Source: Escherichia coli
GTDB lineage: Bacteria; Pseudomonadota; Gammaproteobacteria; Enterobacterales; Enterobacteriaceae
Strand: one strand, 5' to 3'
Assembly: GCF_003018255.1 (NCBI RefSeq)
Contig: NZ_CP027440.1
DNA length: 64,000 nt
In this document: positions 22,585 to 38,064 of the stretch, piece by piece
Layout of the letters: each line of letters starts with the position of its first letter
Position numbering within the stretch: position 1 is the stretch's first letter
The notes under the pieces: model-generated
The model's database searches: none
Told to the model about the DNA's origin: nothing
What the model saw: the letters and a program-made list of their open reading frames with translations, nothing else
Translations under genes and position numbers: made by a program

Positions 22585-23517
22585 ATGGATGCACCGAGTA
22601 CCACACCGCATGACGCGGTATTTAAACAATTTTTAATGCATGCGGAAACGGCTCGTGACTTTCTGGATATCCATTTGCCAGCGGAACTACGCGAACTGTG
22701 TGACCTCGACACGCTGCATCTTGAGTCGGGGAGTTTTATTGAAGAAAGCCTGAAAGGGCACAGCACTGACGTGCTTTATTCCGTGCAAATGCAGGGTAAT
22801 CCCGGTTATTTGCATGTGGTGATTGAACATCAAAGCAAGCCGGATAAGAAAATGACCTTTCGCATGATGCGCTATGCCATTGCCGCCATGCACCGGCATC
22901 TGGAGGCGGATCACGATAAGCTGCCGCTGGTGGTGCCGATTCTGTTTTATCAGGGCGAGGCCACACCTTATCCGCTCTCAATGTGCTGGTTTGATATGTT
23001 TTACTCGCCGGAGCTGGCGCGACGCGTCTATAACAGTCCTTTTCCGCTGGTGGATATCACTATCACACCGGATGACGAAATCATGCAGCACCGGCGGATC
23101 GCGATTCTCGAACTACTGCAAAAGCATATTCGCCAGCGCGACTTAATGTTATTGCTGGAGCAACTGGTCACGCTGATTGACGAAGGGTACACTAGCGGAA
23201 GTCAGTTAGTTGCCATGCAAAACTATATGCTGCAACGCGGTCATACTGAACAAGCGGATTTGTTTTATGGTGTGTTGCGAGACAGGGAAACGGGAGGGGA
23301 GTCTATGATGACGCTGGCGCAGTGGTTTGAAGAGAGGGGAAGACAGGAGGAAAGGCAGGAGGTAAGACAGGAGGTAAGACAGGAGGTAATACAAGAGGTT
23401 AGACAGGAAGTAAGACAGGAATTCGCCCTGCGTTTTCTGAGTAAAGGGATGTCTCGGGAAGACGTTGCAGAGATGGCAAATTTACCTCTTGCTGAGGTTG
23501 ATAAGCTGATTAGCTAA
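22585..23517 (+). CDS. rpnC: Rpn-family (YhgA-like, PD-(D/E)XK) recombination-promoting nuclease with repeat-rich C-terminal tail
   Basis: 310-aa ORF MDAPSTTPHDAVFKQFLMHAETARDFLDIHLP...; N-terminal nuclease-like D...EHQ.K motif; C-terminal (E/Q)VRQ repeats; K-12 YadD is 300 aa as I recall. Confidence 0.9.
   Translation: MDAPSTTPHDAVFKQFLMHAETARDFLDIHLPAELRELCDLDTLHLESGSFIEESLKGHSTDVLYSVQMQGNPGYLHVVIEHQSKPDKKMTFRMMRYAIAAMHRHLEADHDKLPLVVPILFYQGEATPYPLSMCWFDMFYSPELARRVYNSPFPLVDITITPDDEIMQHRRIAILELLQKHIRQRDLMLLLEQLVTLIDEGYTSGSQLVAMQNYMLQRGHTEQADLFYGVLRDRETGGESMMTLAQWFEERGRQEERQEVRQEVRQEVIQEVRQEVRQEFALRFLSKGMSREDVAEMANLPLAEVDKLIS
23343..23426 (+). repeat. seven imperfect 12-bp tandem units inside rpnC encoding RQEE/RQEV repeats
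   Basis: GACAGGAGGTAA-like units read directly from sequence. Confidence 0.85.
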
Positions 23518-23585
23518 GTTATCTGCATTATCAGTTATAGCCAGATAATTGTTATTGTTAACTGACCAGATAATTAAGGGAACAT

Positions 23586-23838
23586 ATGGAAATAAAGACA
23601 CGGAGAGAAACCAGGCAGACGTTGGCGCAGTGGTTTGAAGAGAAGGGATTTCAGAAGGGATTTCAGAAGGGATTTCAGAAGGGATTTCAGAAGGGATATA
23701 AAGAGGGGATATAAAGAGGGGCTCCGGAAGGTAAGGCTGGCCCAGCGTCTTCTGAGTAAAGGAATGTCTCGGGAAGACGTTGCAGAGATGGCAACTTTAT
23801 CTCTTACAGAGGTTGATAAGCTAATTAACTCTAACTAA
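23586..23838 (+). pseudogene. orphan Rpn C-terminal tail cassette, frame-disrupted by a 13-bp tandem duplication
   Basis: SD-like AAGGGA + ATG 23586; MEIKTRRETRQTLAQWFEEKGFQKGFQKGFQKGFQKGYKEGI* in one frame, ...RLLSKGMSREDVAEMATLSLTEVDKLINSN* in the +1 frame; 4 x AGAAGGGATTTC and 2 x GATATAAAGAGGG. Confidence 0.6.
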
Positions 23839-23933
23839 GTTGTCTGCGTTATGAATAATCGCTTACAGACGTCATCGCCATGACGTGGGGTAAATTAATA
23901 ACTGGCGCCATCAGCCGTAGCGCCAGATAAGGA

Positions 23934-24785
23934 TTACGCCAGTTCGACGATTTTGTTGTCGATCAGGCGAGCATCGCCAAGCCAGGCGGCTACCAGAATC
24001 ACTGCCCGTTTGCTGTTTTCAGAGACTTCCTGCAACGTGTCGGCATCACGAATCTGAATATCATCGGCGCGGAAGCCTTTTTCATTCAGTTCTTGCCCGG
24101 CAATAGCAATAATTTCATCGAGATCCCGTTCCCCAGCCTGCAATTTGTCGGCAATTGAACTTAAAACTTTGTACAGACCGGGCGCAATTTTGCGTTGTTC
24201 CGCCGTCAGATAACCGTTACGGGAACTCAGCGCCAGACCGTCTTTGGCGCGCATAATTGGCACACCGATAATCTCAATATCAAAGCCCATATCAGCAACC
24301 ATTTTGCGGATCAGCGCCAGTTGCTGAAAATCTTTTTCACCGAAGCAGGCGATGTCCGGCTGGACCAGATTGAACAGCTTGCTGACAATCGTCGAAACGC
24401 CGCGAAAATGTCCCGGACGGCTGGCACCTTCCAGCATGGTGGAAAGACCGGGAACATCAACATAGGTGTGGGTTTCTGTACCGTTCGGGTAGATCTCTTT
24501 TACCGAAGGCGCGAAAACTAGATCCACTTTACGTTTGTTCAGCTTTTCGCAGTCCTCTTGCAAGGTCCGTGGATAACGTGCCAGATCTTCCGGGCGGTCA
24601 AACTGCATCGGGTTAACGAAAATACTGACCACTACCACATCGGCGCGGGCTTTGGCTTCGTCGACCAGCTTCATATGGCCATCGTGCAGGTTACCCATGG
24701 TGGGCACCAGCGCCACGCGCTTACCTTCCATACGCAGGCGGCGAATTTGCTGACGCAGCAGCGGCAGGGTTTCGATAATTAACAC
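23934..24785 (-). CDS. panC: pantoate--beta-alanine ligase
   Basis: (M)[36 protein letters not shown]...; first codon reads GTG. Confidence 0.95.
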
Positions 24786-25702: not shown

Positions 25703-26968
25703 TCAGGGGTAGGTAACCTGAAAAGTGCTGGTGGCTTTAAAATCCCCCGGTTCTATAGCAATATTACCGTCTTGTTTTAATGTAGCCTGGAAATGAAGAG
25801 GTTGTGAGGTACCGTTTCCTTTATCCGGGTAAATTCCTCCGGTAGTGTCATCTTCTGTTTCGTAATCTTTATAAACAGACGTTGAATCATTTGGTTTCAG
25901 TACCATTTGTGCACTTTTAGTGTTTTTTAAACCTTCAATCAGTACACCAACACCTTTTGCTGCGTTATTTCCTGTGAGTGTGTTAGCCAGAAGTTCTTTG
26001 CTTACACTGCCCACCTTGTTTGACATAAGTTTTGTTTCTATATTGCGAACACGAATACAGTTCTGTAGCGTGATATCAAAAGGAACCGCTGTTGCGCCAT
26101 TTTTTATTTGCGCAGGGCTATAATCACCCATTTTAACCGTTGAACCACTTACCGTTGGGCCACTAAGCGCCGCAGTAAAACAGGTAGGGTTTGTTAATAC
26201 GACATCTGTCAGGTCAAAGTCGATTTTAAGAAAATAGCTGTGTTCATTGATACCAATGCCAACACCATATCCTTTGAATGAGTAGAGATAGCTATCTGTT
26301 CTGGATAATGTTACCCGTTGGTTCGTTGTCGGGTTAAAGTCGGTATCGGTATAAAATTCAATCGTGAGAGTTTGCATAACGCCACCAACGGCCCAATATT
26401 TTTTGGTGCTGTTCGCGTTGTTGCAAGACCAATATAGTGTTTGCTCGCTTTGGCCTCGCCAGTTAAAATATTGTTCTTTAGAATCGCCAATATACATGCC
26501 TGATGGGTTGATATCAGTGAGTGTCTCTGTTGACCAAATGTTTGATATTACTAATGTGTAATACAGGCCTGGGACAGATGTCTTAAAGAGTTTATGCCCA
26601 CCATAACTTTTACCGGAATCAACCATTTTATTTTCAATACTCATTGGCGTGCCGCTTGCGTTACCACTTCTGTTACAGTAAAGAAAGCCGCCACCTGAAG
26701 CGGAATCTAACTGCGTCCATTTTAATGACACCCCGGTTGGGCCAAGTTGGGTTGGTTTATAAAAAACTAAATTATTGGTGCCTGAACCATACCGGAATTT
26801 GACGGTGACATCTCCATTGGGGCCTGTTTCTTTCCATTTTTGGTCTGATGGACCAACACCGGCATTATTCCCAACAACATAGCTGACGTTATTAGCTGCA
26901 CCAACACTTGCTGTATAACAACAAGAGCACAGTGCTAAAAAAAGAAAGTATCTGAAGAATATCTTCAT
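25703..26968 (-). CDS. yadC: fimbrial tip adhesin-like protein of the yad chaperone-usher operon
   Basis: signal peptide [24 protein letters not shown] after ATG 26968 with GGAG SD; C-terminal pilin-like domain; longer than the 412 aa I recall for K-12. Confidence 0.85.
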
Positions 26969-27017
26969 TTTTACTCCATTGTCATGCTGCAAGATAATGC
27001 TTGCAGCACTTTGTCTG

Positions 27018-27614
27018 TTATTCGTAGTAAATATCCACTAACACATGGCTTATAAGTTGGCCAGAGGTGACATTCAGCGCTGGATCGATTTTTTGCATTC
27101 GAGTGCTAAATTTCCAGGATGAATTGTTTAGTGCTGATGACATGACCGGATAAACGGAACGTGAGCTACCAGTTACGCCAGGAACGTTGAAGGTATTTGC
27201 CGGGTCCTGAATAGAGAATATAACTACCCCAACATTTTTAGCCCCGGTGTTGTCTTCATTGGCGAATATTTGACTGGAACCTGTCGCCATTACGCCACTG
27301 AGTGCGCGAAAATCAATATGTAACTGATTTAACACATTCCCTGTGCCCTGAAGTGTGCAGTCCTGTACTGTAATAGTGAACTCTTTTCCACCGGGGTGAT
27401 AATTTTCGGCTGAAATGTTTCCGGTAAAATCGCCCACGCCAACGACACCTAAATCAATATTTCCGTTGTTGCTGATTCCACTTTGGCAGGTGTTATTTTT
27501 TATATTTGCAACAATGTCAACATCCTGTCCTGCAACCACAGGGAAAGTGGTGCTGAATAGCAAAGACAGAAGCAGAATTGATTTTTTCATCAGATTACGT
27601 TGAGTGGGGCGCAT
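27018..27614 (-). CDS. yadK: fimbrial subunit (pilin-like)
   Basis: 198-aa ORF with signal peptide; AGGA SD before ATG 27614; alternative start 27590. Confidence 0.85.
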
Positions 27615-27640
27615 ATTTAGTTCCTGAATCGGTCTGCCTG

Positions 27641-28246
27641 TTAGTTATAAGTCACAGTAAATGTTGCCGGAGCGGTGAAATCACCCGCGGTGACATCTGT
27701 AACGGTTTTATCTTTCGCGACCACCAAAACAGCACTCATCGGGTAATCGACAACATCACCTCCCGTCGCACCAGCAATACTGACTTCTTCTGTTGCGGGG
27801 GTGACGCAACTGAATTGTTTTGCGCCGTTTTTACCTGGTGTGGACGTACTCCAGACCTCAACGGCGACTGCCGCTGCTTTTGCTGTTGCCGTTGATGCGT
27901 TAGCAAATCCAGGGCCGTTATTAGAATTACCTTCGCATAAGGCTCGTGGGGTCAACTTTATTTTGGCCTTTTTCCCGGGAATCCCCGCACAGTCTTTGAA
28001 CTGCAATTTGAAGGTTTTAATTTTAGTTTCGGCATTAATTTCAGAAATATATACATCACCGAAATTGATGGTGGACAGTTTAGCTGTACCGTCATCAGTC
28101 AACGTTGATGTACAGGTACCCATTTCTATGTCTGTAGTAACAGTCAGGCCAATACTATCAGTGGCCGCATGTGAGGAAATGGTTAACAGTGATGAAGCCA
28201 GAAATAGACTACCCGATAATCCATAACATAATTTTTTTAATATCAT
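27641..28246 (-). CDS. yadL: fimbrial subunit (pilin-like)
   Basis: MILKKLCYGLSGSLFLASSLLTISSHAATDS...; start chosen at ATG 28246 (AGGA SD upstream), ORF also open to 28255. Confidence 0.85.
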   Translation of the reverse strand: MILKKLCYGLSGSLFLASSLLTISSHAATDSIGLTVTTDIEMGTCTSTLTDDGTAKLSTINFGDVYISEINAETKIKTFKLQFKDCAGIPGKKAKIKLTPRALCEGNSNNGPGFANASTATAKAAAVAVEVWSTSTPGKNGAKQFSCVTPATEEVSIAGATGGDVVDYPMSAVLVVAKDKTVTDVTAGDFTAPATFTVTYN

Positions 28247-35218: not shown

Positions 35219-36145
35219 TCAGCATGACGCATTTGAGAATGTTGAATTTACAATTGCCGACTCAGGCACGGCGGTAAGCCGCCAGTTTTTGACGGCTGAC
35301 TGAAGGATTTGCTCGACGCTGAAATCCTGCCAGTGTGCTTCTGCCTGCTGACCCAGAAATTGAAGTGCCGCGATTAGTACCGGGCGCGGATCGCCTTTCG
35401 GCAACGCAGGCGCATGATTCTGCTTGGAAAGTTTAGCGCCTTGTGTGTTAAGCGCCAGCGGTAAATGAATGTAATCTGGCACTTTCCAGCCAAAAAGCTG
35501 GTACAGCGAGATTTGCCGCACTGTCGGTTCGATCAAATCTGCCCCGCGGACAATTTCGCTCACGCCCTGGAAGTGATCATCCACCACCACCGCCAGGTTA
35601 TAGGCAAACAAACCATCACGGCGATGAATAATAAAATCTTCCCGCGCCAGTTTTTCGTTGGCGTGAATAATGCCGCGCAGCTGATCAGTAAATAGCGTGA
35701 CCGGATGCTGCTGGCGGATACGTACTGCGGCGTTGTCTGGTCCATGATGCAATTCCCGGCAATGACCGTCGTAAATACCGCCAATGCTTTGAATACGCGC
35801 GCGCGTGCAGGTGCAGTAATAACTTAGTCCTTGCTCATGTAACCAGGCGAGTGCTTCGCGATAGGCATCGTGACGTTGCGATTGCCAGAGAACGTCGCCG
35901 TCCCAGTGCAGACCGTAATGTTCCAGCTGGCGCAGGATAGTCTCTGCGGCACCGGGAACTTCACGAGGCGGGTCGATATCTTCAATGCGTACCAGCCAGC
36001 GACCTTGCCGGGCGCGAGCCTGTAAATAGCTGCCAAGCGCGGCAATCAGAGAGCCAAAATGAAGCTCGCCGGAAGGAGAGGGGGCAAAGCGGCCAATATA
36101 GTGTGTGTCTGTCATCTCGTTGAACAAAAAATAAGGCGGGAGCAT
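35219..36145 (-). CDS. gluQ: glutamyl-Q tRNA(Asp) synthetase
   Basis: [33 protein letters not shown]... (class I aaRS HIGH-like motif); formerly yadB. Confidence 0.9.
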
Positions 36146-36154
36146 TTCCCGCCT
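36120..36154 (-). terminator. dksA rho-independent terminator whose hairpin and U-tract overlap the gluQ start codon
   Basis: on the minus strand AGGCGGGAAATGCTCCCGCCT followed by TATTTTTTGTTC; the hairpin loop contains the gluQ ATG. Confidence 0.65.
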
Positions 36155-36181
36155 GTGGTAAACGTGATGGAACGGCTGTAT

Positions 36182-36637
36182 TTAGCCAGCCATTTGTTTT
36201 TCGCGAATTTCAGCCAGCGTTTTGCAGTCGATGCACAGATCGGCTGTCGGGCGCGCTTCCAGACGGCGAATACCAATTTCAACACCGCAGGATTCGCAGT
36301 AGCCGAAATCTTCGTCTTCCACTTTTTTCAGCGTCTTCTCGATCTTTTTGATCAGCTTACGCTCGCGATCGCGGTTACGCAGTTCGAGGCTGAACTCTTC
36401 TTCCTGGGCTGCACGGTCTACCGGGTCCGGGAAGTTGGCTGCTTCATCCTGCATATGTGTAACGGTGCGATCGACTTCATCCCTGAGTTGATTACGCCAT
36501 GCTTCCAGAATACGACGGAAGTGCGCCAGCTGGGCTTCATTCATATACTCTTCGCCCGGCTTCTCCTGATATGGTTCCACCCCAGCGATGGCGAGAATAC
36601 TCAGGGACGATGTTTTACGGTTTTGCCCTTCTTGCAT
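36182..36637 (-). CDS. dksA: RNA polymerase-binding transcription factor DksA
   Basis: [51 protein letters not shown]...; C4 zinc finger [25 protein letters not shown]. Confidence 0.95.
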
Positions 36638-36814
36638 GTTGCTTCTCCTTAACACGCACTATCGATCCCCATGTTCGGGGGAAAAATGAGGCCGCTATAA
36701 ATAGCAGATGCTTTTCCGGATAGCAATTATCTAAACGTAACACTTGACAACTGTGTGAGGAAAAGCGTATTTGCGCACGCGACCAGAATGTAAATTAACC
36801 AGTTACATACTTTA

Positions 36815-38064
<1,250 letters not shown>

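Follow-up and report, generated by a model that had tools for sequence, protein, structure and literature searches.

Between the stop codon of rpnC and the convergent gene panC, the Escherichia coli DNA analysed here (a window of 64,000 nucleotides from contig NZ_CP027440.1 of assembly GCF_003018255.1, to which all positions refer) contains an interval of 416 bp (23518-23933) in which the 3' end of rpnC appears to be present a second time, interrupted by a short tandem duplication. The question raised by this locus is what the interval represents: a small gene which has been inactivated, a store of sequence for the exchange of the rpnC tail, or an element which is turned on and off by its own repeats. 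The rpn genes encode small RpnS proteins from internal starts, and the full-length nuclease, which is toxic, is blocked by those which have been tested (Zhong et al., PNAS 2023, PMC10400941). An antitoxin role has been demonstrated for RpnA, RpnB, and RpnC_S; RpnS binds to the long nuclease via a helix, the length of which is set by repeats of 4 amino acids (12 bp), and RpnL toxicity is blocked only when the repeat number matches (PMC10400941). The crystal structure of RpnA_S is a bundle of three helices, of which the first is long and forms the dimer interface.

In the window, rpnC (yadD, encoding RpnC_L) is an intact gene for an Rpn-family PD-(D/E)XK nuclease of 310 amino acids. It is found in the open reading frame list at 22585-23517 on the plus strand, ends with a TAA at 23515-23517, and is flanked by panD and by the convergent panC (23934-24785, minus strand). 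A protein identical to its product is deposited as WP_053290698.1 and annotated as 'Rpn family recombination-promoting nuclease/putative transposase'. The antitoxin module resident in rpnC, the small-protein frame rpnC_S, is the intragenic stretch from 23305 to 23517 on the same strand, which begins with MMTLAQWFEE, comprises 70 amino acids, and is preceded by GGGAGGGGAG; judged by the K-12 expression data in PMC10400941, it would be expressed in the strain of the window as well. A 12 bp array inside rpnC (23340-23420, plus strand; AAGACAGGAGGT, 6.8 copies according to TRF) encodes 4 amino acid repeats of the RQEV type.

The rpnC stop is followed by a spacer and leader of 68 bp (23518-23585, plus strand), which is specific to the cassette, has no counterpart in K-12, and includes an SD-like AAGGGA at 23576-23581 in front of an ATG at 23586. 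Starting with residue 20 of the frame opened by this ATG, within the 8-20 residues from the initiator Met at which RpnS repeats set in, four perfect 12 bp units AGAAGGGATTTC (23641-23688, plus strand) encode KGFQ repeats; TRF extends this array over 23641-23697 with a period of 12, 4.8 copies, 100% matches, and a score of 114. The frameshifting lesion consists of two tandem 13 bp units GATATAAAGAGGG (23695-23720, plus strand; copies at 23695-23707 and 23708-23720), which TRF reports with a period of 13, 2.5 copies, and a score of 59. The second 13-mer yields an in-frame TAA at 23712-23714, so that a 5' frame of 42 amino acids remains in the open reading frame list (23586-23714, plus strand), reading MEIKTRRETRQTLAQWFEE(KGFQ)4KGYKEGI up to the stop. 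The 3' half of the module, which translates to GLRKVRLAQRLLSKGMSREDVAEMATLSLTEVDKLINSN followed by a stop (23721-23838, plus strand), is now in the +1 frame, and the conserved tail ...RLAQRLLSKGMSREDVAEMATLSLTEVDKLINSN with its stop at 23836-23838 belongs to an open reading frame covering 23635-23838. The positions given in the preliminary description for the SD-like motif, the ATG, the 12 bp units, the two 13 bp copies, and the TAA all agree with the sequence. Its proposal that the cassette is a second copy of the rpnC 3' end was borne out when the alignment was run: the rpnC tail (23280-23545) and the cassette (23570-23865) share a mean column identity of 82% at the DNA level, and the homology extends about 17 bp beyond both stops. 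Likewise, deletion of one 13-mer in silico gave a continuous frame of 79 amino acids, the predicted length being about 79, and this protein equals the natural intact alleles save for the number of repeat units.

The cassette is rpnC_Ss, which has already been published (PMC10400941) as a second RpnC_S copy which some E. coli carry downstream of rpnC, with 4 amino acid repeats which vary between strains and with losses through deletion or through fusion with rpnC. What distinguishes the copy in the window from the published gene is its inactivation by an out-of-frame 13 bp duplication, which is not mentioned in the main text of PMC10400941. An uninterrupted frame for the whole RpnS module is absent from the window cassette, which makes it a pseudogene member of the family. 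The favoured reading, to which a probability of roughly 85% is attached, is thus that the interval is a pseudogenised rpnC_Ss (23586-23838, plus strand), a lineage-specific allele of an antitoxin-like orphan gene which is already known. RpnC_Ss may be given an antitoxin role by analogy, and its function would have been lost in the window lineage.

Intact versions of the gene elsewhere carry much of this reading. The cassette of CMZE046 contains an open reading frame of 67 amino acids with one KGFQ unit (WP_000404124.1, "RpnC/YadD family protein"), those of 746, 2014C-3338, and GPEC1258 contain one of 71 amino acids with two units (WP_000404121.1), and that of EC17GD31 one of 75 amino acids with three units. 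All of these carry the same leader, ATG, and tail as the window cassette, and the 3' half in the window is identical to that of WP_000404121.1. The SD and ATG are conserved, the reading frame is intact in nearly all cassette-bearing genomes examined, and the place of the cassette, which directly follows rpnC in the same orientation and precedes panC, was constant in all 14 genomes from which cassette-bearing loci were retrieved. In strain E04 the 416 bp interval is 100% identical to that of the window, and PGAP annotates a frameshifted 'transposase' pseudogene at the corresponding positions. These intact alleles together with the PGAP call support the earlier suggestion that a small stand-alone gene consisting of the tail only was inactivated by strand slippage. 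The interval is better labelled rpnC_Ss (pseudogene) than "transposase". For the intact gene the PGAP labels are inconsistent, being "RpnC/YadD family protein", "hypothetical protein", "transposase", or "ISNCY family transposase".

The occurrence of the cassette was surveyed with its leader region (23528-23622): of 5426 complete E. coli genomes, 1555 (28.7%) contained it, at identities of at least 94.7%, always on the chromosome and nearly always once per genome. The remaining 71% are without the cassette, among them K-12, in which rpnC and panC are separated by 73 bp. The K-12 spacer of about 70 bp given in the preliminary description and the supposition that the cassette is strain-specific were thereby both confirmed, and the suggested survey of the interval across E. 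coli revealed variation in presence as well as in the copy numbers of the 12 bp and 13 bp units. A search in about 5.8 billion proteins retrieved stand-alone homologues of 55-86 amino acids from E. coli, E. marmotae, and other Escherichia. These homologues show great diversity in their repeats. Intact alleles have 0, 1, 2, or 3 KGFQ units, other forms have a doubled KGYKEGLQ unit or units of the AYQE type, and RQEV-type units, which are usual in rpnC itself, occur in some stand-alone homologues such as that of Nissle 1917. With four KGFQ units the window lineage has the highest number met in the analysis. Repeat numbers were taken from direct sequence retrieval, the end-points of megablast matches being only approximate.

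Comparisons at the protein level place the repaired protein in the same family. It matches positions 213-273 of the 273 positions of TIGR01784 (Rpn family) with an E value of 1.3e-9, which falls short of the cutoff for whole proteins, as the cassette comprises the tail alone, and a precomputed PF27070 hit is attached to many of its homologues. An hmmscan of the repaired protein against Pfam-A gave no match to DUF4351 (PF14261), the domain quoted as annotation of stand-alone RpnS genes, and returned only Yae1_N (E = 3.4e-5, driven by the repeats) and weak HTH matches; Yae1_N and a further match to FliH were dismissed as compositional effects of the KGxQ repeat. AlphaFold2 predicted for the repaired protein of 79 amino acids a long helical region with short breaks (residues 6-53) followed by two short helices, at a moderate mean pLDDT of 67.7. 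With this model Foldseek found nothing significant in the PDB (E values of 3 or higher), and phmmer and hmmsearch of PDB sequences with the cassette protein returned designed repeat proteins only and no match to RpnA_S. The cassette shares with RpnA_S, RpnB_S, and RpnC_S a homologous domain with a start of the TLAQWFEE type, a long helix, predicted for the cassette, which bears the repeats, and the SKGMSREDVAE...DKLI part. It differs from them in being a separate gene, whereas their starts are internal to the rpn genes so that they necessarily co-vary with the toxin. An analogous layout is found in ypaA (rpnE_Ss) of E. coli K-12, where a stand-alone RpnS module also lies right after its parent rpn gene and the SPA-tagged protein has been detected; in the main text of PMC10400941, RpnE_Ss (YpaA) is the only stand-alone protein for which detection by tagging is described. 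Unlike the cassette, ypaA lies at another locus, is intact in K-12, and originated independently from RpnE according to phylogeny (PMC10400941).

The cassette could also serve as a silent donor for the recombinational replacement of the rpnC tail, in which case it would be untranslated and the frameshift irrelevant. In P0018 and P0020 a tail of the cassette type (...GGESMMTLAQWFEEKGFQKGFQKGYKEGLRKV...INSN) directly continues the RpnC body; such fusions are also reported in PMC10400941, and these two alleles confirm the route of deletion and fusion given there. Repeat types are mosaic, Nissle having KGIE-type repeats in rpnC and RQEV-type repeats in the cassette while the window has the reverse arrangement, and the second tail of CMZE046 bears a patch, ANLPLAE, resembling the first. 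Nevertheless, as the two tails are direct repeats, the DNA between them would be removed by a crossover in a single and irreversible step. The 110 nucleotides following the repeats group by position, with 17-21 differences between first and second tails and 0-14 among second tails. Because of this clustering, conversion between the two tails is occasional rather than pervasive, and concerted evolution as the dominant process was rejected on the same grounds. The conserved SD and ATG of the cassette and its reading frame, intact in nearly all genomes examined, argue for a translated gene. The analogous RpnE_Ss is synthesised in K-12 (PMC10400941), and recombinase sites are not evident. A dedicated donor is for these reasons considered unlikely. 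The notion of a spare cassette for exchange, put forward in the preliminary description, stands as far as one-way deletion or fusion and an occasional patchy conversion are concerned, and finds no evidence where a dedicated switching system is implied.

A 47 bp probe across the duplication junction matched just 5 of the 5426 complete genomes. These genomes, complete and independent of one another, come from China, Viet Nam, Mali, and Japan, which excludes an artefact of assembly as the source of the duplication. The 13-mer is present in two copies in E04, 200164, and 2017.09.02CC, and in three in JNE23-011 and JNE112863. Over the 1.3 kb of rpnC and panC flanks, which were compared for the window and all carriers save JNE112863, only 0-2 nucleotides differ among E04, 200164, 2017.09.02CC, JNE23-011, and the window; the nearest intact allele (2014C-3338 / GPEC1258) differs by 18-19 nucleotides over the same length. 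Because the carriers share these near-identical flanks, a single origin of the duplication is the parsimonious reading. All duplicated alleles have a G right after the array, GAGGGGCTCC, and all single-copy alleles examined in complete genomes have an A at this site, GAGGGACTCC. A construct with a single 13-mer copy and the G had no perfect match in the 5426 complete genomes, and two contigs from human gut metagenomes carry a single-copy G allele in a different allele background. As such alleles do occur, the substitution is plausible as a separate first step.

A likely order of events, with replication slippage as the presumed mechanism, would then be the following. A synonymous change from GGA to GGG (A to G, turning GAGGGAC into GAGGGGC) at the end of the dodecamer array, where it is degenerate, would have created a run of four G, and hence a GGG microhomology at a spacing of 13 nucleotides in place of the native register of 12. 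Slippage would next have duplicated 13 bp, giving the +1 shift, the TAA, and the stub of 42 amino acids. After this single event the arrays would have kept slipping, the 12-mer to 2, 3, or 4 copies and the 13-mer to 2 or 3. The loss of rpnC_Ss could be tolerated because rpnC retains the intragenic RpnC_S and because most complete genomes manage without the cassette.

Continued slippage is suggested by the repeat numbers of the broken alleles. The window and E04 both have four 12-mers and two 13-mers, and E04 has one 12 bp unit more than the window in the rpnC array; 200164 has three 12-mers and two 13-mers, 2017.09.02CC two and two, JNE23-011 four and three, and JNE112863 three and three. The five carriers and the window thus represent five distinct combinations of the two cassette arrays, and with the rpnC array as the third all six differ pairwise, and none of them is in frame. 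Two 12-mer units are found in the ancestral-like intact allele, and an intact allele with four units was not seen among those analysed. The expansions of the array most probably postdate the breakage of the gene, which would attribute them to mutational instability and not to selection on the rpnC_Ss protein. For the diversity of the repeats in Rpn tails, this change of the arrays after inactivation suggests that a large share stems from a high intrinsic rate of slippage or recombination and not from phage-imposed selection alone. A more far-reaching version, by which the arrays of rpnC and rpnC_Ss are locally hypermutable regardless of any selection on the proteins, perhaps driven by the RpnC nuclease and with the 13-mer as a slow ON/OFF switch, is held to be improbable; the nuclease as the driver of array instability is a speculation of Zhong et al. 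(PMC10400941).

The age of the broken allele bears on the same point. Over 40 kb the carriers share 98.7-99.0% identity with the window (98.76% for E04) in a mosaic fashion, long runs with 0-1 differences per 2 kb being broken by patches with 189-275. The best match to the window over 24 kb, DETEC-S792 with 99.5%, has an intact cassette with two units. As the carriers are mosaic in this way and span three continents, the allele is not brand new, and the inactivation, which had been called recent, is so only in a relative sense. The persistence of the broken allele in mosaic and dispersed strains fits neutrality and would also be compatible with a residual role.

A rival to simple inactivation is that the 13 bp array acts as a phase-variable switch, in which slippage between 1, 2, 3, and 4 copies toggles the orphan antitoxin-like gene and so tunes the RpnC defence. 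The 13-mer resembles the repeats of simple-sequence contingency loci in that it lies within a reading frame, has a unit length which is not a multiple of 3, and varies between 2 and 3 copies among genomes with near-identical flanks, and the adjacent 12-mer array is clearly unstable. It differs from them in having 2-3 copies only, in an ON state not observed in the lineage, and in being a lineage-specific accident which the gene does not otherwise conserve. The repeat numbers of known contingency loci are far above 2-3 copies, which counts against a switch here. All five carriers among the 5426 genomes and the window itself are OFF, with 2 or 3 copies, and neither a 1-copy nor a 4-copy allele was found in the carrier background among the complete genomes; the two single-copy G alleles retrieved by the metagenome scan both belong to the other background. 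In addition, the lesion is limited to one rare lineage while about 1550 genomes bear alleles which do not switch. A phase switch is on these grounds regarded as very unlikely. That the frameshifted allele yields a functional product, either the 42 amino acid stub as a dominant-negative or decoy or a 67 amino acid protein with RRDF repeats started at TTG 23635, can practically be dismissed, since, even though the SD, the ATG, and the repeat region of helix 1 are intact, the +1 frame is open over 23635-23838 with RRDF fitting the scheme of one hydrophobic and three charged residues, and the allele persists in several genetic backgrounds, the stub is without the predicted helices 2 and 3 (the conserved SKGMSREDVAE...DKLI part), the TTG is without an SD, stops block the frame to the tail in the 3-copy alleles so that the lineage as a whole conserves no alternative product, and no +1 slippery site could be read from the sequence upstream of the TAA, for which reasons programmed +1 frameshifting and translation of the RRDF frame were rejected.

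The KGFQ-type repeats of the window cassette and the RQEV-type repeats of the resident RpnC are uncoupled in type and in number, which suggests that the cassette may not neutralise the neighbouring RpnC. A precedent for functional consequences of such 12 bp changes, cited in PMC10400941, is given by HsdS of EcoR124I and EcoR124II, where gain or loss of 12 bp (4 amino acids, TAEL) in a helical spacer alters the specificity. HsdS differs from Rpn in belonging to another protein family and in its function, which concerns the spacing in the target DNA of type I restriction.

The sequences on both sides of the cassette were inspected as well. A local alignment of the spacer and leader (23518-23619) with rpnC upstream of its tail scored 16, which is not significant against a mean of 14.7 for shuffled sequences, and a blastn "distant" search revealed no paralogous copy of the leader elsewhere in E. 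coli. On the plus strand, the interval from rpnC to the ATG contains neither a sigma-70 consensus site nor a terminator, and the cassette is assumed to be co-transcribed with rpnC and rpnC_S. Between the cassette and the convergent panC lies a GC-rich hairpin (23902-23926), terminator-like for the minus strand, which probably works in both directions. A short inverted repeat, ACGTCAT-CGCC-ATGACGT, can be read from the sequence in the 3' flank of the cassette (23869-23886) and is polymorphic between strains.

The four-amino-acid units encoded by the 12-bp repeats differ between the Rpn nuclease gene rpnC and the cassette rpnC_Ss, the stand-alone second copy situated between rpnC and panC, and they differ also between strains. 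In Nissle 1917 the repeats of rpnC are of the KGIE type and those of the cassette of the RQEV type, whereas in the window RQEV-type repeats are found in rpnC and KGFQ-type repeats in the cassette. The repeat types of the two positions appear to be exchanged between Nissle 1917 and the window. Fusion alleles were found in the protein homologues P0018 and P0020, where the rpnC body (...RDRETGGESMMTLAQWFEE) runs on into a tail of the cassette type (KGFQKGFQKGYKEGLRKV...INSN). These two are direct cases of recombination between both TLAQWFEE regions which removed the cassette. The repeat array of rpnC itself contains two perfect 12-bp units (GTAAGACAGGAG) in the window (23340-23420) and three in strain E04, despite the cassette and its flanks being identical in the two. 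The tail of the toxin gene and the cassette are therefore both changing, over an equally short timescale.

The synonymous change which is thought to predispose the array to the 13-bp slippage, the G4 variant GAGGGGCTCC, occurs by itself in single-copy cassette alleles of two human gut metagenome contigs (L021, 10332-10352, and L022, 4774-4794), and the allele background of these cassettes differs from that of the window lineage.

The 3' flank of the cassette varies among strains as well, as seen when positions 23860-23900 of the window are compared with three other cassette loci (L002, L003, and L004). In the window lineage this flank is CAGACGTCATCGCCATGACGTGGGGTAAATTAATAAC, which includes a hairpin with a 7-bp stem and has an end resembling K-12, and in many other carriers of the cassette it is CAGATAACGTGGCAATGAATAAC. 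The distance from the cassette stop to panC is about 280 bp in 2018-05-2CC (L009, 1563-1839) versus about 95 bp elsewhere, and an additional insertion 3' of the cassette seems likely in this strain. On a larger scale, comparison of the window with other carriers of the duplication yielded sharp recombination patches at about 26000-28000 and 36000-38000. In the yad fimbrial adhesin region, 2017.09.02CC and JNE23-011 show 189 differences per 2 kb from the window, and around dksA-sfsA-thpR, E04 and 200164 show 275 per 2 kb. Almost no differences between the window and these carriers were present in the stretches adjoining both patches.

In Nissle 1917 (L011, 1347-1544) and ETEC1748 (L013) the cassette is labelled by PGAP as 'incomplete; missing N-terminus'. 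Both cassettes have a normal leader and ATG, an unbroken reading frame (65 or 73 amino acids), and repeats of the RQEV/AYQE type, and the label is probably an annotation artefact arising from comparison with full-length Rpn models. Throughout RefSeq E. coli this one small gene goes by the PGAP names 'RpnC/YadD family protein', 'hypothetical protein', 'transposase', and 'ISNCY family transposase'.
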